A stretch of 64,000 nt of DNA, taken from an uncultured Candidatus Rokubacteria bacterium. GTDB taxonomy: Bacteria; Methylomirabilota; Methylomirabilia; Rokubacteriales; CSP1-6. Of this stretch, positions 43,340 to 57,375 are shown in pieces. Numbering within the stretch: position 1 is the stretch's first letter; every line of letters starts with the position of its first letter. The position numbers and the translations under genes were made by a program. The DNA lies in NCBI GenBank assembly GCA_963758635.1, contig CAVWWD010000005.1, positions 544,001-608,000 on the forward strand, written 5' to 3'. The notes beneath the pieces are model-generated. The model saw only the letters and a program-made list of their open reading frames with translations, ran no database searches and was not told the DNA's origin.

Positions 43340-43555
43340 TCACTCGAGCACCGCGATGGTGTCGCCCTCCTGGACCGTCTGGCCCTCTGTCACCAGGATC
43401 TCCTTCACCACGCCGGCCCGGGGCGCTTCGACGGGGATCTCCATCTTCATGGACTCCAGGACGATCACGGGATCGCCGGCGCTGACGGCGTCCCCCGCCT
43501 TGCTCGTGACCTGGAAGACCACCCCGGTGATGTGAGCCTTCACCTCTTCAGGCAT
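43340..43555 (-). CDS. Stand-alone biotin carboxyl carrier protein (71 aa)
   Basis: LESMKMEIPV biotinylation motif. Confidence 0.9.
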   Translation of the reverse strand: MPEEVKAHITGVVFQVTSKAGDAVSAGDPVIVLESMKMEIPVEAPRAGVVKEILVTEGQTVQEGDTIAVLE

Positions 43556-44891
43556 TGAACGCTCCTTGTTCGACCATCTGGGTGTGCACCCGCCCGGATC
43601 GGAAGGCATCGCTCCGCATCACGCGCTGGTGAAACGGGATCACCGTCTTGACGCCGTCGACCTCGAACCGGTCCAGCGCCTCCTGCATGCGCACGATCGC
43701 CTCGTCGCGGGTCGCCCCGGACGCCACGAGCTTGGCGAGGAGCGAGTCGTAGTGGACGGAAACCGTCACGCCCTCGGCGATGCCGCCGTCGACGCGGATG
43801 CCCGGTCCCTCGGGCACGCGCAGCCGCGCCACCGTCCCGGGCGACGGCAGGAAGCCCCGCGCCGGGTCCTCCGCATAGATGCGGCACTCGATGGCCGAGC
43901 CGCGCTGGACGATGTCCTCCTGGCGCCACGGCAGCGCCTCTCCGGCCGCCACGCGTAGCTGGGCTTCGACCAGGTCCAGGCCCGTCACCGCCTCCGTGAC
44001 CGGATGCTCCACCTGGAGGCGGGTGTTCATCTCCAGGAAGTAGAACTCCTCGCCCTTCACCATGAACTCGAGCGTCCCCGCGTTGACGTAGCCAACCGCG
44101 CGCGCGCCCGCCACCGCGGCCGCGGTGAGCCGCGCCTTCAGGCCGGCGCGAGCGCCGGCGCGGGGCTCTCCTCGACGAGCTTCTGGTGCCGCCGCTGGAT
44201 CGAGCACTCCCGCTCGTGCACGTGCACGACGCCGCCCCCGCGGTCGCCAAAGACCTGGACCTCGACGTGCCGCGCCGCCTCCAGGTAACGCTCCACGAAG
44301 AGCGCTCCCGAGCCGAAGGCGGCCTGCGCTCGGCGCTGCGCGGTCGCGAAGGCCGACGGCAGCGCGGCGGCGTCGGCCACTCGCGCCATGCCGATACCGC
44401 CCCCGCCCGCCGCCGCCTTGAGCATGACGGGGTAGCCGACGCGAGCCGCCACCTCGGCCGCCGCCTCGACGCCATCCAGGGCGCCGTCGCTGCCCGGCAC
44501 CACCGGCAACGCCGGCCCGGGCCATCACGGTCCGGGCACCGATCTTGTCGCCCATCTGCTGGATGACCGTCCAGGACGGCCCGATGAACACGAACCCGGC
44601 CTCCTCGCACGCCTTGGCGAACCGCCAGTTCTCGGAAAGGAACCCGTAGCCGGGATGGATCGCCTCGACCCCCCGCTCGCGCGCGGCGGCGAGGACGCGG
44701 TCGATGCTGAGGTAGCTGTCACGCGCGGCCGGCGGACCGATGAGGACCGCTTCGTCGGCATCGGTCACGTGCGGCCACGCGGCATCCGCCTCGGAGTACA
44801 CCGCGACCGATCGGACGCCCTGGGCGCGGCAGGCGCGAATGATCCGGCGCGCGATCTCTCCCCGGTTGGCGACGAGGACGCTGCGCAGCAC
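43548..44891 (-). CDS. Biotin carboxylase; two compensating indels (~44515, ~44140)
   Basis: ANRGEIA, HPGYGFLSEN, KAAAGGGGIGM, ERECSIQRRHQK, EMNTRLQVEHPVTE. Confidence 0.93.
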   Translation of the reverse strand: MLRSVLVANRGEIARRIIRACRAQGVRSVAVYSEADAAWPHVTDADEAVLIGPPAARDSYLSIDRVLAAARERGVEAIHPGYGFLSENWRFAKACEEAGFVFIGPSWTVIQQMGDKIGARTVMARAGVAGGAGQRRRPGWRRGGGRGGGSRRLPRHAQGGGGRGRYRHGASGRRRRAAVGLRDRAAPSAGRLRLGSALRGALPGGGAARRGPGLWRPRGRRRARARAGVLDPAAAPEARRGEPRAGARAGLKARLTAAAVAGARAVGYVNAGTLEFMVKGEEFYFLEMNTRLQVEHPVTEAVTGLDLVEAQLRVAAGEALPWRQEDIVQRGSAIECRIYAEDPARGFLPSPGTVARLRVPEGPGIRVDGGIAEGVTVSVHYDSLLAKLVASGATRDEAIVRMQEALDRFEVDGVKTVIPFHQRVMRSDAFRSGRVHTQMVEQGAFNA

Positions 44892-44895
44892 GGAC

Positions 44896-45881
44896 TCAGG
44901 CGGGGCGGACGGCGTCCGGACGGGGAGACGTTCGATGGCGACGAACGCGCCATCCCTCGACGCCGAGACCCCATCGCAGCGCCAACGCCACCGAGCCGTC
45001 AGGGGCGTCGAGCCGGAGCTTCACCACCCAGTGGGCGCCGAGGCGCGCGCAGGCCACCATGCGCGGCGCCGACAGGCGCTCGCCCCCGATCGTGTCGATC
45101 GCGTCGGGTCCCCACGCGGTCCCGCGCGGCGAGCCACGGCGCGGCCCCATCCAGCCCATCGGCGACGAGGGCGGCGACCATGGCGTCGACGGTAACGGTG
45201 AGCTCCTCCGGGATCGGCCAGCGCTCCCTGGGCGCTTCGAGCCGGACGAACTCCGCCGCGTCCCCGGCATCGCTCAGGCTCTCGGCGAACACGGGCGCCC
45301 CACCCGGCGCGGCGAGCTCGTCCCCGGTGACGCCGCGGGCCGTGGCGAGCAGACCGGCAAGGCGCGCGTGCCACGCCCGCGCCCGATCCTCGCGGGCGCC
45401 GTCCCGCGAGGAGGTGCCGGAGGACCAGCTCACCTGCCGCCACGTGGCGCCGCTCGTCATCGATGACCCGAGCGAGCACCCGTCGGGTCGGCGGCTCGTA
45501 CACCTCGTTGGCGAGGTCGAGGTGGCGCTGGTAGGTACCGAGCAGGTGCGGCTTCAGCACCCGGTACACGCCGACCAGCCGCTCCACCGTCTGGCCTGGT
45601 GCCTCCGGCTCCTCCACGACGTCCATGAACGCCACGAAGGCGGGATTCGAGGGCTCCGAGACCTGGGCCTGCGCGCGCAGCTCCGGCAACCGCTTGCCGA
45701 ATGCGTCGGCGTGCTGGGCGTTGTCCCACACGTGACGCCCCATGAGGAGCTTCGCGGACAGCTCGGGCGTGAGGGCAAGCCAGCCGCCGAGGATCCGCAT
45801 CATGCGCTCGGCGGCGTAGCGATAGTTGCGGATCACCCGCGCCGACTGGTCGACCGGGAAATGTCCGTCGAGAGGATACAT
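44896..45881 (-). CDS. Hypothetical protein with ferritin-like N-terminal half; apparent indels (~45400, ~45110)
   Basis: GRHVWDNAQHADA and DDERRH helices parallel those of the adjacent DUF455-like protein. Confidence 0.55.
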
Positions 45882-45934: not shown

Positions 45935-46690
45935 TCAGTACACCTGCGATCGCTGGGTGGTCTTGATCAGGCGCTGGATCTCCTCGTCGGTGAAGCCGCC
46001 GAGCTGACGGGCCTCGGTCGCGATCGAGATCAGCACCTGCTCGTGGTCGCCATCCTGGCGGACGCCGCCCAGGTTGAATCGCTCGTCGATGCTCTCCTGG
46101 AACTCGATGGCGCGGCGACGTCGCTCGGGATCACCCTCGGTCAGCTTGGTGAGCCACTTCGATCCCATCCGGACGTGCGTGATCTCGTCGGCGAGCACGA
46201 AGTCGACGGCGCGCTCGATGATCGGGTCGCCCATCTTGCGCGCGATGTGAACGAGCTGGTTGAAGACATCGCAGGCGAGCCCCTCGAGCCCGCGGTTCAC
46301 CCCCGCGACACGCGCGGCGGCGTCCTCGGCGCACGCGCATCGCCACAGGATCGTCGTCTCCGGGAACTCGCCCGGATAGCCGTCGAGGTGCTCGAGGAGC
46401 CGCAGGTAGATCTCGAGGTGGCGCGACTCGTCCCACACCTGCCGCGCCATGTCCATGGTGAACTCCCATGGCGCATCGGGGAAATCGCAGACTGTGCGCC
46501 CCGCGCCCTCCATGGCCTGCATCTCGCCGACCATGATTCCGTGCGCCCGCTCCTTGATGGACTCACGGCTCGAGAGGTCAGGGAACGGCGGCAGTCCCTG
46601 GTCGACCTTGACCTGGGCAACGTCGCGGGCCCGCATCCGGACGAAGCGGTCCTCGCGAGCCAGCTTGTCGTAGGCGATGGGACGTTCCAT
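45935..46690 (-). CDS. Ferritin-like (DUF455-like) diiron protein
   Basis: GEMQAME, QVWDESRH, EGLACD, ADEITHV: two ExxH pairs. Confidence 0.75.
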   Translation of the reverse strand: MERPIAYDKLAREDRFVRMRARDVAQVKVDQGLPPFPDLSSRESIKERAHGIMVGEMQAMEGAGRTVCDFPDAPWEFTMDMARQVWDESRHLEIYLRLLEHLDGYPGEFPETTILWRCACAEDAAARVAGVNRGLEGLACDVFNQLVHIARKMGDPIIERAVDFVLADEITHVRMGSKWLTKLTEGDPERRRRAIEFQESIDERFNLGGVRQDGDHEQVLISIATEARQLGGFTDEEIQRLIKTTQRSQVY

Positions 46691-48587: not shown

Positions 48588-49241
48588 CTACGAGCGTACG
48601 GACTGGCGCAGGGCCTCGAGCTCCTGCTCGAGCGACTGGATGCGATCCATCAGGTGCTCGACGGCGCGGGCGAGCGGATCTGGCAAGTCCACCTGGTTCA
48701 GGTCGATCTCCCCCGTCACGCGTTGGCCGTCACGGAAGGTCACCCGGCCCGGCACGCCGACCACGACCGAGTTGGCGGGCACCTCCCGCACCACCACCGA
48801 GCCTGCGCCGATCCGGCTGCCCTCGCCGATCGTGAAGGACCCGAGGACCTTGGCGCCCGCCCCGACCACGACGTTGTCGCCCAGGGTCGGGTGCCGCTTC
48901 TCGCGGCGAAGGCTCGTGCCACCGAGCGTCACGCCCTGAAGGAGGGTCACGTTCTCCCCGATCTCGGCGGTCTCGCCGATGACCACGCCCATCCCGTGAT
49001 CGATGAAGAGACCGTCGCCGAGCTTGGCCGCGGGGTGGATCTCGACGCCAGTGATGAACCGGTTCAGATGGGAGAGGAGCCGCGCCGGCGTCGCCCACCC
49101 TGACTGCCAGAGCCGGTGGGCCACTCGGTGGAACCAGATCGCGTGGACACCCGGGTAGCACATGACCACCTCGAGCGCCGACCGTGCCGCGGGGTCACGC
49201 TCGAGGACGGTTCGCACGTCCCGCTTCATGCGTTCAAACAC
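48588..49241 (-). CDS. cysE: Serine O-acetyltransferase
   Basis: [35 protein letters not shown]. Confidence 0.96.
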
Positions 49242-49647
49242 GGCTTGCTCCTCCCTCGTCGTTGGTGGCGCGCCCGGCTTCCGCCCGTACGCGCCCGTCC
49301 CGAGCCGCAGCCCGGATGGCCGCGCTCACCACCTCGGCGGCGTGTCGACGGTCGTCGGGCAGGCCGCCCACCGCGGCCTCGACGCGGCCCGCGGGCAACT
49401 CCTCGACCTCGGACAGCGGTAGGCCCGCGATCAGCTCCGTACCCGCGCTCGACGTCGCGATGGTGGGGCCGCACCCGTAGGTCTGGAATCGCGCCTCCTC
49501 CACTCGCCCTCCGCGGATGCGGAGGTACACACGGGCCAGATCCATGCAGTCCCGATCCTCGGCCTCGCCGACGCCATCCGGGTTCCGCATCATCCCCGCG
49601 TTGCGGGGATTGCGAAAGTGATCGATGAGCGTCTGGCTGTAGCGCAC
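49234..49647 (-). CDS. IscU/NifU-N-like scaffold protein, atypical (only two Cys)
   Basis: [30 protein letters not shown] in place of LPPVKIHC. Confidence 0.85.
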
Positions 49648-49649
49648 TA

Positions 49650-49729
49650 GTGAGCCCCGCGCATCAGACGAATGCCGAGCGGTGGGACTGTAGAGGCCCG
49701 TGGCGGTTACCGTACCCTGCGAGGGTCAC
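49650..49729 (+). repeat. Full 80-bp element flanked by TA on both sides
   Basis: TA|GTGAGCCCCGCGCA...TGCGAGGGTCAC|TA between the desulfurase stop and the IscU-like start. Confidence 0.95.
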
Positions 49730-50883
49730 TAGGCCCGCACGGGCGACGCGCTCCGGAGCTTGGCCACGAGCGTCTCCACGGCGTCGACCACGTAGTCGAT
49801 GTCCTCGACGCTGGTGCCCCGGCCGAGGGAGCACCGGACCGCCCCCATCGCCCACGGGATGGGGATGCCCATCGCCACCAGCACGTACGAGGGCTCCACG
49901 TTCCCCGAGGTGCAGGCCGACCCGGCCGACACTCCGATTCCCTTCAGATCCAGCCCGAGAACGACCGATTCGGACTCCACCCGGTGGAAGGACATGTTGC
50001 ACGTGCCGGGCAGGCGATGCGTGGGGTGCCCGTTCACCCGCACCTCGGGCACGTGGGCGCTGACGCCCTCCCAGAGGCGGTCACGGAGGCCGGTGAGCCG
50101 CACCGCCTCGGCGGCCATGTCGCGGGCGCGGACCTCGACCGCCTTGCCGAAGCCCACGACCCCCGCCACGTTCTCGGTGCCGGCGCGGCGCCGGCGCTCG
50201 TGCTCCCCGCCGTGCTGGACCGACACCATCTTCGTGCCCCGGCGCACGTAGAGACCCGCCACGCCTTTGGGCCCGTAGATCTTGTGGCTGGAGAACGACA
50301 GGAGGTCGATGCCGAGCGCGTCCAGGTCCAGCGGGAGCTTGCCGAACGTCTGAACGGCATCCACGTGGAAGGGAATCCCGTGCTCGCGCGCGACGCGCCC
50401 GATCTCCGCGACGGGCTGGACCGTGCCGACCTCGGAGTTCGCGTGCATGACCGTCACGAGGATCGTCTCCGGCCGGACCGCGCGCCGGACGTCGTCGGGA
50501 TCGACGAGGCCGTGGCCATCCACGGGTAGGTACGTCACCGTGAAGCCCTGTTGTTCGAGCGCCTGGCAGGCGCGGAGCACCGCATGGTGCTCGATGGCGG
50601 AGGTCACGATGTGCCCTCCACGTCGGGCGGTGGCCACGCCCTTGACGGCGAGGTTGTCCGACTCGGTGCCGCCGGACGTGAAGACGATCTCCTCCTTGCT
50701 CACGCGCAGGAACGACGCGATCTGCTCGCGCGCCGCGTCCAGGCCCTCACGCGCCTCGCGGCCGAAGCCGTGGACGCTCGAGGGGTTGCCGAAGCGTTCG
50801 GTGAGATACGGAAGCATCGCGTCCAGCGCCTCGGGGTGCAGGGGCGTCGATGCGTTGTGATCGAGATAGACTCGTCGGCTCAT
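49729..50883 (-). CDS. Cysteine desulfurase (IscS/NifS group I), catalytic motifs intact
   Basis: LDHNASTP, EHHAV, DAVQ, SSHKIYGPKG, RAGTEN, SAGSAC. Confidence 0.95.
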   Translation of the reverse strand: MSRRVYLDHNASTPLHPEALDAMLPYLTERFGNPSSVHGFGREAREGLDAAREQIASFLRVSKEEIVFTSGGTESDNLAVKGVATARRGGHIVTSAIEHHAVLRACQALEQQGFTVTYLPVDGHGLVDPDDVRRAVRPETILVTVMHANSEVGTVQPVAEIGRVAREHGIPFHVDAVQTFGKLPLDLDALGIDLLSFSSHKIYGPKGVAGLYVRRGTKMVSVQHGGEHERRRRAGTENVAGVVGFGKAVEVRARDMAAEAVRLTGLRDRLWEGVSAHVPEVRVNGHPTHRLPGTCNMSFHRVESESVVLGLDLKGIGVSAGSACTSGNVEPSYVLVAMGIPIPWAMGAVRCSLGRGTSVEDIDYVVDAVETLVAKLRSASPVRA

Positions 50884-50912
50884 TGACCTCGTCCTCCTCG
50901 CGATGCTACGCT
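50883..50912 (+). promoter_or_regulatory. Candidate promoter of the dsrEFH-like genes
   Basis: TTGACC-18bp-TACGCT with TGn; ATG at 50922 without an SD. Confidence 0.5.
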
Positions 50913-50921
50913 GACGCCGGC

Positions 50922-51239
50922 ATGACGCTCGCCGGACGCAAGCTCGGACTGATGCTCTCCACCGCGCCCGAGCACGCCAACCTCGCCACCGCCGTCGGCC
51001 TCTCCTCCGCGGCCCTCGATCGCGGCCTCTCCGTGTACCTGTACCTGATCGACGATGCGGTCGCCGCCGTCGAGCACCCCCTCGTGCAGGGGCTGGCCGA
51101 CCGCGGCGCCAGGCTCTTCGTGTGCGCCTACGGCTGCCAGAAGCGCCGGCGGCCGCTGTCCGACCGGGCCACGAACTGCGGCCTCGTCGTGCTCGGCGAC
51201 GTGATCAGCGGAACGGACCGCTTCCTCTCCCTCAACTGA
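50922..51239 (+). CDS. DsrE/TusD-like sulfur relay protein
   Basis: YLYLIDDAV, LFVCAYGC (conserved Cys), GL..LGDVISGTDRFLS. Confidence 0.8.
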   Translation: MTLAGRKLGLMLSTAPEHANLATAVGLSSAALDRGLSVYLYLIDDAVAAVEHPLVQGLADRGARLFVCAYGCQKRRRPLSDRATNCGLVVLGDVISGTDRFLSLN

Positions 51240-51249
51240 CGGCCGCCGC

Positions 51250-51606
51250 GTGGCCGCCAGCCCCTCGGTGCTCGTGATCGTCTCGGAGGATCCGCGCGTG
51301 TCCCACCGCGCGAGCGAGGCGCTCAGGATCGCGCTCGGCGTCGCGGCCAGCGACATCGACGTCGTCGTGGTGCTGAGCGGGCCCGCCGCGCACCTGCTCG
51401 ATGCCGACACCGACGATCTGGTGGACGGCGACGACATCGCGAAGGTCCGCGGCTCCCTCCGCACGATGGGGGTCCGCATCCACGTCGCCGCGGACGCCAT
51501 CCCGGCCGACCCCGACTGGAATGCCGAAGGGCATCCCGTCACTCCGGTGGGCCCCGCGGACGTGGCCGCGCTCCTCGAGCGAACCACGCGCTCGATCGTG
51601 TTCTGA
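51250..51606 (+). CDS. DsrF/TusC-like protein
   Basis: VIVSEDP..SHRASEALRIALG; C-terminal SIVF; second gene of the trio. Confidence 0.65.
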   Translation: MAASPSVLVIVSEDPRVSHRASEALRIALGVAASDIDVVVVLSGPAAHLLDADTDDLVDGDDIAKVRGSLRTMGVRIHVAADAIPADPDWNAEGHPVTPVGPADVAALLERTTRSIVF

Positions 51607-51836
51607 TGCCCCGCCACCTGCACCTCCTCCGGTCCGACTCGGCCGGCGTCGCCGGCCCGGCGATCGAGGCCGGCGCGGCACGGCCGGACACCGAGATCAC
51701 CGTGGTGCTGCTCGACGACGCCCCGCCGCCCCGCCTCCCCGCGGCCGCCCGCGTGCTCACCCTCGGGGCGGGCGGCCTCGACTACGCGGCGCTCCTCGAC
51801 CTCATCTTCCAGAGCGACCACGTCGTCAGCTGGTGA
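51606..51836 (+). CDS. DsrH/TusB-like small protein
   Basis: VVLLDDA; C-terminal LDYAALLDLIFQSDHVVSW; TGATG coupling. Confidence 0.6.
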   Translation: MPRHLHLLRSDSAGVAGPAIEAGAARPDTEITVVLLDDAPPPRLPAAARVLTLGAGGLDYAALLDLIFQSDHVVSW

Positions 51837-51847
51837 GGCCGAGCCTC

Positions 51848-52048
51848 TCACCGGTCCCGGTGCTCCTCGACCCACCGCATCTGGATCGCCTCGAGGATCC
51901 CCTCGTTCGAGGCCTTGGGATCGTCGTTGAAGCCGGGGAGCTCGGTCACCCACCGGTGCAGGTCCGTGAAGCGCACGCCGAGGGGATCCGTGTCCGGGAA
52001 CGTCTCCATCAGGGCGATCGCGATGTCCTCGGCGTCCGACCATCTCAT
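51848..52048 (-). CDS. iscX: Fe-S assembly protein IscX
   Basis: MRWSDAEDIA, DPLGVRFTDLHRWV, ILEAIQ..W. Confidence 0.95.
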   Translation of the reverse strand: MRWSDAEDIAIALMETFPDTDPLGVRFTDLHRWVTELPGFNDDPKASNEGILEAIQMRWVEEHRDR

Positions 52049-52061
52049 GGCGCGGGCTCCC

Positions 52062-52384
52062 TCACTTCGGAATCTCGACCACGACGTCGCCCTTGACCAC
52101 GGCCTGGCAGCCGAGCCGCGAGTGCAGCGTCAGGCCTTCCGCGGTGTCGAGGCGATCCTCCTCGTCCGGCTCCATCGGCGACAGGTTCGCCTCCCCTTCC
52201 CGGACGATCACGTGGCACGTCGTGCACGCGCAGCTGCCGCCGCAGTTGTGCTCGAGGTGGATGTCGTTGGCCAGGGCGATGTCGAGCAGCGAGCCCGGAC
52301 GCCCGTGGTCGGCGAGGGGGTAGGCGTCCTCGTCCACCTCGACGGTCACGTTGAGCGGCAGGAAGGTCACCCGATGCCTGGCCA

Positions 52385-52388
<4 letters not shown>
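52062..52388 (-). CDS. fdx: ISC [2Fe-2S] ferredoxin
   Basis: HNCGGSCACTTCHV, SRLGCQ. Confidence 0.95.
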
Positions 52389-54188
<1,800 letters not shown>

Positions 54189-54211
<23 letters not shown>

Positions 54212-54779
54212 GCGTGTCCGTGTCCTCTCCCAGGGCTTCACCCAGGTCGTCGATCACCGTGCGCAGATAGGCGCGCGCGGCGAGCCGGGCCGTGAACCAC
54301 TCGAGGAGCGCGGATCGGTCGCCGGGCGCCGCCCGGTCCCACTCCGCGAAGCGCCCCACGATCGACCGATCCTCCCGTTCCCGCCACTCCACGAGGCGCC
54401 GGCGTTCGGCCTCGAGCCGCGCCCGCGTCTCGCCGTCGAGCCCGCCGGCCTTCGCCTCGAGCAGCGCTTCCTGGATCTCCATCATCTCCTCCAGGAGCTC
54501 CCGCGGCGCTCGCGGCTTCGCCTCCGCGCCCTCGCGCGTGTCCCGGCCCTCCTCGAGGCGGATCAGGTAGTCCACCCGGGCGAGCGGGTCACGCAGGGCG
54601 CGATAGGCCCGGTTCACCGCCGCGGACGCGTTCAAGGCCTGGGCCTGCGCGTCGGCCGGGGCCGCCTGATGGAAGTCCGGGTGGTGCGCGCGCGACAGCT
54701 CGTAGAAGCGCCGCTGCAGCGCGGCAGCGTCCACCTCGAGCTTCCGCGGAAGGCCGAACACCGAGAAGTAGTCGTCCAT
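54189..54779 (-). CDS. hscB: Co-chaperone HscB
   Basis: DYFSVFGL, HPD J-domain motif, NRAYRALRDPLAR. Confidence 0.94.
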
Positions 54780-54889: not shown

Positions 54890-55216
54890 CTACGCCGTGA
54901 ACGAGGTTCCACAGCCGCACGTCGATTTCGCCTGGGGGTTGACGAAGGTGAAGCCCCCCGTCAGCCCCTCCGTCACGTAGTCGAGCGTGATGCCGTTCAG
55001 GTAGAGGTAGCTCTTGGCGTCGCAGACCACAGGGACGCCATCGATCTCGAACTTCTTGTCGTGCTTGCCGACCTCGCTATCGAACTCCAGCGAGTACGAC
55101 AGGCCGGAGCAGCCTCCGCCCTTCACACCCATTCGAAGATAAACGTTCTCCAGGTTCTGCTCCTTGAGGAGCTTTCTCACCTGGGTCGCCGCCTTCTCCG
55201 TCAACGCCAGCGCCAT
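54890..55216 (-). CDS. iscA: A-type Fe-S carrier IscA/HesB
   Basis: GGGCSGLSY, FVNP, CGCGTSF. Confidence 0.95.
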   Translation of the reverse strand: MALALTEKAATQVRKLLKEQNLENVYLRMGVKGGGCSGLSYSLEFDSEVGKHDKKFEIDGVPVVCDAKSYLYLNGITLDYVTEGLTGGFTFVNPQAKSTCGCGTSFTA

Positions 55217-55244: not shown

Positions 55245-55667
55245 CTAGGCTTGGGATGGCGCCGCGCCCGAGGGCGCTTCCGACGCCGTCCACTTGTCCT
55301 TGTAGTCGGCGAGGGCAGCCTTGATCGCGTCCTCGGCGAGCACGGAGCAGTGGATCTTCACCGGCGGAAGCTTCAGCTCGCTGACGATGTCGGTGTTCTT
55401 GATCTTCGCCGCCTCGTCCACCGTGCGGCCCTTCAGCCACTCCGTGGCGAGGCTCGATGAGGCGATGGCGCTGCCGCAGCCGAACGTCTTGAACTTCGCG
55501 TCCTCGATGACCCCCGTCTCGATGTTCACCTTGATCTGGAGCTTCATGACGTTGCCGCACTCCGGCGCACCCACCAGCCCCGTCCCCACGCCCGGGGTGC
55601 TCTTGTCGAACGACCCGACGTTGCGGGGGTTGCTGTAGTGATCGACCACCTTCTCGCTGTAGGACAT
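55245..55667 (-). CDS. iscU: Fe-S scaffold IscU (CGN in place of CGD)
   Basis: YSEKVVDHY.NPRNVG, APECGNVMKLQI, FGCGSAIASSS, LPPVKIHC. Confidence 0.96.
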   Translation of the reverse strand: MSYSEKVVDHYSNPRNVGSFDKSTPGVGTGLVGAPECGNVMKLQIKVNIETGVIEDAKFKTFGCGSAIASSSLATEWLKGRTVDEAAKIKNTDIVSELKLPPVKIHCSVLAEDAIKAALADYKDKWTASEAPSGAAPSQA

Positions 55668-55690: not shown

Positions 55691-56917
55691 CTATTCGGCC
55701 TTCCAGTGGATGGACTTCAGATCCACGCCCTCTTTCGCCAGCTCGTAGAGCGGCGACATCTCACGCAGCCGGTGCACCACCTCCACCGTCCGTCCCGCCA
55801 CGTGGTCCACCTCGTCCTCCGTGGTGAACCGATGCACCCCGAAGCGGATCGACGAGTGGGCGAGCTCGGAGTCCACGCCCAGCGCCGAGATCACGTACGA
55901 CGGCTCGAGGGTCGCCGACGTGCAGGCGGAGCCGGAGGACAGGGCGACTTCCTTGTTCAGCCCCATGAGCACGGACTCGCCCTCGACGTAGGCGAACGAC
56001 ACGTTCAGATTGTGGGGGAGACGGCGCTCGGGATGTCCGTTGAGGAACGCCTCATCGACCTTGGACAGGATGGCCTCCTGCAGGCGGTCCCGGAGAACGG
56101 CCATGCGCTTGCTCTCCTCCGGCATGACCTCGCGGCAGATCTCCGCCGCGCGCCCGAAGCCCACGGCGAGAGGCACGGGGATCGTGCCGGAGCGCATGCC
56201 GCGCTCGTGTCCACCACCGTCCATCATGGCGGACAGGCGCACCCGCGGCCCCTTGCGGCGGACGTACAGCGCGCCCACGCCCTTCGGCCCGTACAGCAGG
56301 TGGGCGGTGCACGAGAGCAGATCGATGCCCATGCCCTCCACGTCGACCGGGACTTTGCCGACCGCCTGGGTGGCATCGGTATGGAAGATGATGCCCTTCT
56401 CCTTGGCGAGCTTGCCGATGTCCGCCACCTGCTGGACGGTCCCGATCTCGTTGTTCGCGAACATCACGGAGAGCAGGATGGTCTTCGGCGTGATGGCGGC
56501 CCGGAGCGCCTCCACGTCGACGAGGCCGTCCCGTCCGACGCCCACGTAGCTCACCTCGAACCCCTGGCGTTCGAGGCGCTTGCAGACGTCGAGGCCCGCG
56601 CGCTGCTCGATGCGGGTCGTGACGATGTGGTTGCCCTTCTCCCGGTACATCTCGGATACGCCCTTGAGAGCCAGGTTGATGGCCTCGGTGCCACCCGACG
56701 TGAAGATGATCTCCTTCGCGTCGCGGGCCCCGATCAGGCCGGCCAGCTGCTCACGGGCGCGGTCCACGCCGGATTCCGCCTCCCAGCCGAAGGAGTGGTT
56801 GCGGCTCGCCGGGTGACCGAACCGCTCGGTGAAGTACGGCAGCATGGCCTCGACCACGCGGGGATCCGCGGGGGTCGTGGACTGACTGTCCATGAAGATC
56901 GGGAACCTGACGGCCAT
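55691..56917 (-). CDS. iscS: IscS-like protein lacking the PLP-binding Lys and His
   Basis: IscS throughout (NNEIG, DATQ, YGPKG, SSGSACTS, REMSPLYE) but AHLLYGPKG and EQRAG. Confidence 0.9.
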   Translation of the reverse strand: MAVRFPIFMDSQSTTPADPRVVEAMLPYFTERFGHPASRNHSFGWEAESGVDRAREQLAGLIGARDAKEIIFTSGGTEAINLALKGVSEMYREKGNHIVTTRIEQRAGLDVCKRLERQGFEVSYVGVGRDGLVDVEALRAAITPKTILLSVMFANNEIGTVQQVADIGKLAKEKGIIFHTDATQAVGKVPVDVEGMGIDLLSCTAHLLYGPKGVGALYVRRKGPRVRLSAMMDGGGHERGMRSGTIPVPLAVGFGRAAEICREVMPEESKRMAVLRDRLQEAILSKVDEAFLNGHPERRLPHNLNVSFAYVEGESVLMGLNKEVALSSGSACTSATLEPSYVISALGVDSELAHSSIRFGVHRFTTEDEVDHVAGRTVEVVHRLREMSPLYELAKEGVDLKSIHWKAE

Positions 56918-56931
56918 GGTTCTGCCTCTCC

Positions 56932-57375
56932 TTATCTAATGTGGCTCAGCCGGGTCACGGGCGCCGGAACGAGGGGCTCCGCGACCAGCTCGGCCAGGCT
57001 CATCGTGTCCAGCAGGCTGCTGATGCTCTTCTGGATCTTCTGGACGGGCCCCCGCAGGTTGCATCGCTCGTACTGCGGGCAGTCGTCCGTGGTCAAGCAA
57101 CTGACGATGCGCACCGGACCCTCGAGCGCCCTGACGACCTCCCCGACGGTGATCGCCTCCTGCGGCCGGGCCAGCACGTAGCCGCCCTTGGGACCGTTGT
57201 GGCTGACGATCAGGCTCTTTTTCGCCAGCTTCTGGAGGATCTTGGCGAGGAGCTCGCCGGGGATCTTGAATTCCTCGGCGATACGCTTGGCGCTGACCGC
57301 GCCGTCCGGCGATTGAGCCGCGATGTAGTGCACGGCCATCAGTCCGTAGTCGGCGCGCTTGGTGAATCTCAGCAT
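56932..57375 (-). CDS. Rrf2 family (IscR-like) regulator with three Cys
   Basis: DYGL, LAKILQKL, GPKGGYVL, CX5CX5C; heads the isc operon. Confidence 0.93.
   Translation of the reverse strand: MLRFTKRADYGLMAVHYIAAQSPDGAVSAKRIAEEFKIPGELLAKILQKLAKKSLIVSHNGPKGGYVLARPQEAITVGEVVRALEGPVRIVSCLTTDDCPQYERCNLRGPVQKIQKSISSLLDTMSLAELVAEPLVPAPVTRLSHIR

Follow-up and report, generated by a model that had tools for sequence, protein, structure and literature searches.

A predicted pseudo-desulfurase in the isc operon of Rokubacteriales that retains its persulfide cysteine and docking surfaces

The iscS1 gene and its active site

The stretch of DNA analysed here (henceforth the window) comprises 64,000 nucleotides from an uncultured Candidatus Rokubacteria bacterium: assembly GCA_963758635.1, contig CAVWWD010000005.1, positions 544,001 to 608,000. 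It carries an iron–sulfur cluster (ISC) operon whose desulfurase gene, iscS1, specifies an IscS-subfamily protein predicted to be catalytically dead; a second desulfurase gene, iscS2, which is intact, lies behind the operon. The features of iscS1 are listed below, with E. coli residue numbers taken from an alignment of IscS1 with E. coli IscS.

55691..56917, minus strand: iscS1, IscS-subfamily protein, 408 aa, predicted catalytically dead (hidden Markov model (HMM), alignment, AlphaFold2, Foldseek)
56297..56299, minus strand: Leu207 codon CTG, replacing the Lys206 (E. coli) that forms the Schiff base with pyridoxal 5′-phosphate (PLP) (alignment, contigs)
56603..56605, minus strand: Gln105 codon CAG, replacing the PLP-stacking acid–base His104 (E. 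coli) (alignment, contigs)
55922..55924, minus strand: Cys332 codon TGC, persulfide/iron-ligand cysteine equivalent to E. coli Cys328 (kept in 91/91 and 120/120, see below)
56813..56815, minus strand: His35 codon, at a site otherwise always Asn; the change is order-wide and older than the Lys loss (alignment)
56237..56257, minus strand: arginine patch, residues 221–227, ferredoxin/IscX docking site in E. coli (alignment; PMC3750173, PMC2854127)
55694..55771, minus strand: C-terminal IscU-binding helix and tail, residues 383–408, the tail missing in IscS2 (alignment; PMC2854127)

The reading frame is whole, and the two substituted codons read as the initial annotation had them: Leu207 and Gln105 stand at the sites of Lys206 and His104, and the loop cysteine is kept. 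IscS1 scores above the cut-off of HMM NF010611 (600.6 bits, cut-off 548) and below that of TIGR02006 (578.7 bits, cut-off 643.2). The best Foldseek matches of an AlphaFold2 monomer (mean predicted local distance difference test score 73; loops 32–42 and 312–339 unresolved) are NFS1 and IscS, with template modelling scores of ∼0.8 – a fold-type I desulfurase structure.

Both substituted codons are supported by assembled contigs (not raw reads) from three independent sequencing runs. The X5 contig, from an RNA library, spans the Leu207 codon with no differences; the X2 contig spans the Gln105 codon with one difference, at 56519; and the X1 contig spans both with three differences, one of them at 56519, which are too few to restore both His and Lys. 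RNA-library contigs over iscS1 are no proof of transcription. Gln105 and Leu207 are not an assembly error. The sequencing runs that matched best came mainly from soil, bog and rhizosphere samples.

In E. coli IscS each of H104Q, Q183E and K206A abolishes activity on its own, as described in PMC9978102, which bears out the importance that the initial annotation attached to Lys206 and His104. The K206A variant is reported there to retain some PLP and to form cysteine adducts, and its authors speculate that His104 acts as a stand-in base once Lys206 is gone (PMC9978102). Because substitutions at the same residues abolish activity in the E. coli enzyme, we strongly infer that IscS1 is without desulfurase activity. 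The rest of the pocket is retained: the equivalents of Thr76, Asn155, Asp180, His205, Thr243 and Arg354 are present in all 91 of the Lys-less genomes described below and Gln183 in 90 of them. IscS1 Thr245 is invariant; like Thr243 acting in trans, it presumably completes the PLP site of the partner subunit. From this still-conserved pocket we infer that IscS1 could hold PLP, or pyridoxamine 5′-phosphate (PMP), loosely.

Fixation of the substitutions across Rokubacteriales

The nearest named relatives of IscS1 are found in Rokubacteria of the phylum Methylomirabilota (78–85% identity), the next in Nitrospirae, Acidobacteria and Binatia (identity no higher than 69%). The iscS1 genes carry the source annotation ‘cysteine desulfurase’, a label that is probably a mis-annotation.

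Of 111 Rokubacteriales genomes in which iscS1 was found, 105 were analysed (left out: G058, G067, G072, G126, G134 and G154). Gln105 is combined with Leu or Met at position 207 in 91 genomes (Leu 70, Met 21), belonging to families f1 and f5. Seven genomes, all of genus g30 of family f4, combine Gln105 with a retained Lys and Q183E (the QK state), and another seven, from f2, f3 and the remainder of f4, retain His as well as Lys; Gln therefore occupies the His104 site in 98/105 genomes in total. The best 120 of 7,995 protein matches, ranked by likeness to the IscS1 query, all have Gln105 (120/120) and Cys332 (120/120), with Leu at position 207 in 15 and Met in 105. Both His and Lys are kept in 70/70 outgroup sequences of the alignment. 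Gln with Leu or Met is thus a fixed state and not, as the initial annotation had allowed, the decay of one strain.

The initial annotation had also placed the CTG codon two substitutions from AAG. This calls for a correction: ATG (Met) occupies position 207 in 12 of 45 Lys-less genes, mostly early-branching, and the lysine was probably lost stepwise from AAG via ATG to Leu codons, with several separate moves to Leu.

Position 35 is His in 58/58 Rokubacteriales sequences and Asn in 70/70 outgroups and 38/38 IscS2. This change, which arose on the stem, and Ala11→Ser near the pocket are order-wide and earlier than either inactivation; they may leave the full activity of even the intact-looking IscS1 copies in doubt. 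Residue 80 (codon 56678–56680; E. coli Asp79) is Ile in every Lys-less IscS1 and Asp in the intact and QK groups – a third fixed change. There is no new Lys among the fixed differences of the Lys-less proteins.

A rooted tree of HscA, IscU, IscA and IscX from 29 genomes, from which IscS1 was excluded, nests g30 within f4 beside intact genera (support 100/100). A single origin of H104Q is excluded by an approximately unbiased test against a single clade of all Gln105 carriers (p=1.3e-5; the test was picked after the IscS1 tree had been seen), and the IscS1 tree agrees; a separate unrooted tree did not discriminate between one and two origins. On these trees H104Q arose twice, once with Q183E and once with the loss of Lys206, unless the intact lineages reverted. 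Both inactivated lineages carry IscS2 at the same locus.

Purifying selection and retained docking surfaces

The ratio of nonsynonymous (dN) to synonymous (dS) substitution rates was calculated with a Nei–Gojobori script for 109 pairs from 68 Lys-less genomes, excluding three genomes in which IscS1 is truncated. The median dN/dS is 0.129 for IscS1 against 0.203 for the intact IscS2, from pairs that are non-independent and with dS biased by high G+C content at third codon positions; dN is lower in IscS1 than in IscS2 in 107/109 pairs. IscS1 is under strong purifying selection and is not decaying, which settles a question that the initial annotation had raised.

Conservation extends to the surfaces through which an IscS meets its partners: the Cys loop, Arg39, Trp45, Arg55, the arginine patch, Glu309, Glu311 and the C-terminal helix of IscS1 are invariant or nearly so. 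In the Lys-less genomes Cys332, Arg225 and Arg227 are each kept in 91/91 and Arg221 in 90/91; Glu49 of the TusA site is lost. The equivalent surfaces of the E. coli protein are the binding sites of IscU, ferredoxin, IscX/CyaY and TusA (PMC2854127, PMC3750173). IscU docks on the C-terminal helix of one subunit and ferredoxin on the arginine patch of the other (PMC2854127, PMC3750173, PMC11618653), TusA takes sulfur from the loop of the other subunit (PMC2854127), and the loop cysteine of NFS1 ligates iron on the ISCU2 scaffold (PMC11618653).

The isc operon and the genes behind it

The operon begins with an Rrf2 regulator and iscS1, followed by iscU, iscA, hscB, hscA, fdx and iscX; this complete order is found in 82 of the 85 loci long enough to span iscS1 and iscS2.

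56932..57375, minus strand: Rrf2-family regulator with three Cys (profile matches)
55245..55667, minus strand: iscU1, scaffold, canonical in the order (TIGR01999 above cut-off)
54890..55216, minus strand: iscA (profile matches)
54189..54779, minus strand: hscB (profile match)
52385..54205, minus strand: hscA (profile match)
52062..52388, minus strand: ISC-type ferredoxin, acidic helix conserved (profile matches, alignment)
51848..52048, minus strand: iscX (profile matches)

The ferredoxin gene is strictly retained, as is the arginine patch. The iron-ligand Asp39 of IscU1 is present in 101 of 102 Rokubacteriales; only this genome has Asn39 (codon 55551–55553, which differs from GAC in a single base), reflecting either strain variation or a fault in the assembly. 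Co-evolution of Asp39→Asn with the Lys loss is ruled out, Asn occurring in 1/102. In sister family f11 (L176 G081:C178; L183 G112:C135) the IscU beside an intact IscS has Ser for the first conserved Cys, and in several related genomes the locus shows iscS and iscA but yields no match to IscU.

The initial annotation suggested a non-canonical bacterial ISC system, and the setting agrees with this in that SUF is missing from most genomes: SufBD was detected in 10/41 and was not found in this 87%-complete genome. A takeover by SUF behind the Lys loss is ruled out; the 10 genomes with SufBD are spread over all three IscS1 states.

Four further features follow the operon.

50922..51836, plus strand: DsrE/F/H-like trio (50922–51239, 51250–51606, 51606–51836), candidate sulfur carrier (profiles, alignment)
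49729..50883, minus strand: iscS2, intact NifS/MisS-type desulfurase without most IscS docking residues, predicted sulfur donor (NF002806, 339 bits, cut-off 304)
49234..49647, minus strand: iscU2, IscU-like, Cys-Asp-Cys-His, without the persulfide-acceptor Cys and the HscA motif, candidate SufU-like carrier (alignment)
48588..49241, minus strand: cysE, serine acetyltransferase (cysteine supply) (profile match)

IscS2 is above the cut-off of the PRK02948 subfamily. Its His, Lys, Asp and Gln are kept in 87/87 sequences and its Cys in 86/87, the exception being a frameshifted copy; Ser stands at the Asn155 site. Arg39, Trp45, Arg112, Arg223 and the tail from residue 389 are absent and Arg116 is mostly missing, with Glu309, Glu311 and a basic residue at 220 and 225 retained. 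In 85/85 loci that are long enough iscS2 lies behind the operon, beyond the opposite-strand trio, and cysE is downstream of iscS2 wherever covered. IscS2 was found in 102/110 other Rokubacteriales genomes versus 3/50 genomes of other orders. Family f6 has an orthologue of IscS2 that occurs without IscS1 and is followed by an IscU with three Cys and by a gene that, by eye, is mnmA-like; IscS2–IscU2 looks like an MIS pair by origin. Position 103 of IscU2 in Rokubacteriales is Ala in 60, Ser in 1 and not covered in 16, and never Cys; of the 150 nearest representatives, 100 keep His-Cys at this third-Cys site. IscU2 could be an independent SufU-like carrier.

The trio lies on the plus strand, opposite the isc genes and iscS2, which corrects the initial annotation. 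Gaps of 11 bp on the iscX side and 38 bp on the iscS2 side (the latter ∼38–43 bp in several f1 relatives) separate it from its neighbours, and a promoter and terminator scan around it (50883–51848) found nothing exceeding shuffles. Such an arrangement may represent a non-contiguous operon in which the trio is read from the antisense strand. The first trio protein has Cys68 and Cys72 in 90/90 sequences, and a profile search with it against the PDB gave only chance matches. Elsewhere in the window, at 43548–45881, a biotin-carboxylase-like reading frame and the reading frame 45021–45881 appear to switch frame midway, suggesting indel errors in the assembly; a DUF455 gene lies at 45935–46690.

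Genomes that have lost iscU1

Three genomes from three genera (G001, G089 and G156, the last less certain owing to an assembly gap at the locus) lack iscU1, hscB, hscA and iscX at the locus and have no canonical IscU elsewhere; SufBD is present in two of them. In all three, IscS1 stops directly behind the folded core and lacks the IscU-binding tail, but Cys332, Arg225 and Arg227 are kept. The tail is clipped only in these genomes, and only there does dN approximately double (G156 versus G129: IscS1 dN 0.149, dS 0.67; IscS2 dN 0.077). The coincidence of tail loss with iscU1 loss ties the IscS1 tail to IscU1. The persistence of the truncated protein hints at a residual, IscU1-independent role of IscS1, or possibly at slow decay instead.

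A third paralogue beside tusA, and other desulfurases

Elsewhere in this genome a third paralogue, IscS3, lies directly after tusA at G000:C8:1089694 (tusA and IscS3 together 1089441–1090834) and is frameshifted in this assembly. Its best PDB match is Archaeoglobus fulgidus IscS. IscS3 is present in 54/61 Rokubacteriales genomes, and the 36 loci examined all have Asn-Asp at the His-Lys site and an adjoining tusA with both Cys; the loop Cys is kept in 35/36 (lost in G034). Trp45 is not kept. Since TusA is a persulfide carrier, a dead desulfurase that keeps its cysteine beside tusA favours a role for IscS3 as a relay rather than as an iron ligand, as judged from gene order. Selenocysteine in IscS3, considered because of ‘1 TGA’ flags, was ruled out on the one flagged locus that was translated (G005): the catalytic Cys is ordinary and the TGA is off-site, taken as the terminal stop.

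Two other desulfurase genes appear intact. An orphan SufS-family gene occurs in 35/41 genomes, here at G000:C5:145494-146687, without sufBD and near a MoxR ATPase and vWA pair (by eye); one further NifS in this genome is at G000:C2:62125-63261, downstream of NUDIX regulator-like and NAD synthesis-like genes (by eye).

A proposed dead platform supplied with sulfur from elsewhere

On balance we lean towards the view that IscS1, though dead, serves as a homodimeric docking platform for IscU1, ferredoxin and IscX, and that Cys332 receives persulfide made by IscS2 and passes it to IscU1. IscU1 would dock on the IscS1 tail and ferredoxin on the arginine patch of the second IscS1 subunit. A homodimer is proposed because IscU1 on IscS1 needs the patch of the other subunit, which IscS2 could not supply; such a platform would account at once for tail, patch and Cys loop, a heterodimer for the patch alone. 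Sulfur would come from outside IscS1, with persulfide made by IscS2 reaching Cys332 either directly or via IscU2 or a DsrE-like protein, and moving from there to IscU1. The fixed linkage of iscS2 and cysE, together with the prior presence of IscS2 in both inactivated lineages, points to IscS2 as the source; the orphan SufS is a less likely donor.

Several points weigh against this. No precedent was located in the literature for persulfide transfer between two type I desulfurases, and Cys332 could be kept solely as an iron ligand (PMC11618653; PMC8918507). The initial annotation named the intact paralogue as a partner: its linkage to iscS1 is confirmed (85/85 spanning loci), but IscS2, IscU2 and the trio are equally linked in genomes with intact IscS1, so that donation cannot be concluded from linkage by itself. 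The orphan SufS and the extra NifS are further intact candidates for the donor. Gln105 is invariant and arose twice, for which pure loss of constraint would not account. Finally, IscS1 persists in the three genomes without iscU1, and a purely IscU1-directed role does not account for that.

The broader arrangement suggests one catalyst with client-specific dead adaptors. The IscS hub of Rokubacteriales may have been split into a catalytic IscS2 and two dead adaptors, IscS1 (for IscU, ferredoxin and IscX) and the Archaeoglobus-type IscS3 (for TusA), with persulfide passed from desulfurase to pseudo-desulfurase, between dimers or within heterodimers, a condition reached twice by convergence. We advance this tentatively and put its chances at somewhat below even. 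If true, this would be an ISC system with outsourced sulfur, and would suggest that archaeal inactive IscS proteins are sulfur relays too.

Alternative explanations

Instead of a homodimer, IscS1 and IscS2 might form a half-active heterodimer, in which IscS2 makes persulfide for the scaffold on its own side and IscS1 supplies the cross-dimer arginine patch for ferredoxin or IscX; IscS3 would be a second such adaptor subunit. The losses of the two proteins are complementary (IscS2 is catalytic and lacks Arg223, IscS1 the reverse), and the invariance of Thr245, given the partner-subunit role presumed for it, fits as well. So does the persistence of IscS1, with patch and ferredoxin, in the three genomes without iscU1, hscBA and iscX, all three truncations ending just past the folded core. 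In the known enzymes the patch is described as working across the dimer (PMC11618653, PMC3750173), and TusA as using the loop of the other subunit (PMC2854127). We nevertheless consider this arrangement unlikely. It leaves unexplained the invariant Cys loop and IscU-binding tail of IscS1, and the loss of that tail exactly with iscU1; the two proteins are just 48% identical; the f6 orthologues of IscS2 work without IscS1, beside their three-Cys IscU and mnmA-like gene; and Trp45 is not kept in IscS3.

A role like that proposed for A. fulgidus IscS (PMC8918507) would have IscS1 dock IscU1 and ferredoxin and use Cys332 as a transient iron or cluster ligand, with sulfur arriving as free sulfide from the environment or from other desulfurases. 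It would account for the cysteine, tail and arginine patch without a new transfer step, in keeping with the iron ligation by NFS1 noted above (PMC11618653); moreover, H2S rescues an E. coli iscS deletion through IscU anaerobically (PMC13015791). Free sulfide from sulfate reduction, a source that the initial annotation had entertained, is unlikely to be general, as dsrA gave a match in 1/41 genomes, below cut-off; sulfate reduction as the driver of the loss was rejected on the same search, in which no control genome matched. The predominance of soil, bog and rhizosphere samples among the best-matching runs and the linkage of cysE also count against it. The reduction of persulfide, which is the task of ferredoxin, is superfluous when sulfide is the source, yet the ferredoxin and its patch are strictly kept. 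We hold the sulfide role to be a little less probable than the heterodimer.

Continued desulfurase activity of IscS1 from a rewired pocket, with the order-specific His35 as base and non-covalent PLP for instance, is improbable. The other pocket residues are invariant or nearly so (Gln183 in 90/91), His35 had arisen on the stem ahead of both losses, Gln105 is convergent as well as fixed, and E. coli K206A holds some PLP and makes cysteine adducts (PMC9978102). Against this, each single substitution kills E. coli activity, IscS1 has neither the catalytic Lys nor the His proposed as fallback, and no new Lys is among the fixed differences; the geometry of His35 falls in a low-confidence part of the IscS1 model (around residues 32–42). 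The same adducts, which accumulate in the equivalent E. coli variants (PMC9978102), and the retained substrate-binding and PLP-anchoring residues would also suit a cysteine/vitamin B6 sensor, whose pocket traps a PLP–cysteine adduct and gates partners; a sulfur source would still be required, and this reading is more improbable again. A sequencing artefact or decaying relic, for which apparent frameshifts elsewhere in this assembly might argue, can be dismissed, except possibly for the three truncated copies, given the agreement of independent contigs, the state shared by 91 genomes and a dN/dS of 0.13.

Comparison with known systems

A literature search, which covered few subscription journals, found no description of a dead IscS within a complete bacterial ISC operon; the papers that part of this search turned up do not mention Rokubacteria. 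A single protein of the ISC system, and of the mitochondrial machinery descended from it, produces the persulfide and at the same time organises scaffold, ferredoxin and regulators. Here catalysis and docking seem to have been separated twice, in an abundant uncultured soil lineage in which few genomes have SufBD, providing natural variants for asking what IscS does beyond catalysis.

The IscS1 locus shares its gene order with E. coli iscRSUA-hscBA-fdx-iscX, and the protein shares with E. coli IscS and human NFS1 (PDB 3LVL, 8RMD) the fold, the Cys loop and the docking residues for IscU, ferredoxin and IscX. It differs from both in the absence of the Schiff-base Lys and His104 and in the changes Asn35→His and Asp79→Ile. 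A further difference is the fixed presence, beside the Rokubacteriales operon, of a second desulfurase with a Cys-deficient IscU, of a DsrE-like trio and of cysE.

These neighbours have counterparts of their own. IscS2–IscU2 resembles the MIS pair (MisS–MisU), and SufU, of the SufS–SufU pair, is described as a MisU descendant turned sulfurtransferase (PMC13066941); in IscU2 the third Cys has been lost in all Rokubacteriales examined. The trio, like TusBCD and DsrEFH, consists of three small DsrE-fold-like genes, the first with a conserved Cys, but its genes are shorter and show no profile match to solved structures.

The keeping of a dead paralogue beside an active one recalls the prozymes of trypanosomatid S-adenosylmethionine decarboxylase and deoxyhypusine synthase, in which an inactive paralogue reportedly activates catalysis within demonstrated heteromers. 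In Rokubacteriales a heteromer is no more than a rival model, and it is the dead copy that bears the client-binding surfaces.

The closest functional parallels are A. fulgidus IscS (PDB 4EB5, 4HVK, 4R5F), to which the initial annotation likened IscS1, and Methanosarcina acetivorans IscS1, noted as Lys-less in PMC7585200: both have the Lys-less fold, keep the loop Cys and are paired with IscU. The likeness appears to be one of function (no Lys, Cys kept, IscU as partner) and does not extend to the sequence, where IscS1 lacks the hallmarks of the A. fulgidus type. A. fulgidus IscS has Asn-Asp at 205–206, keeps His104 and lacks Gln183 and Arg354; IscS1 has His206-Leu207 and the opposite pattern, keeping the equivalents of His205, Gln183 and Arg354 and losing His104. 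The tree points to an origin of IscS1 independent of the archaeal Lys-less proteins, from a Nitrospirae-like bacterial IscS, and the true A. fulgidus type in the same genomes is the separate tusA-linked IscS3. Unlike its archaeal counterpart, IscS1 lies in a full chaperone- and ferredoxin-dependent operon of mostly non-sulfate-reducing bacteria. A. fulgidus IscS is described as inactive and holding PMP, with its sulfur source left open (PMC8918507); how a Lys-less IscS of this kind gets its sulfur is a question on which the Rokubacteriales locus now bears.

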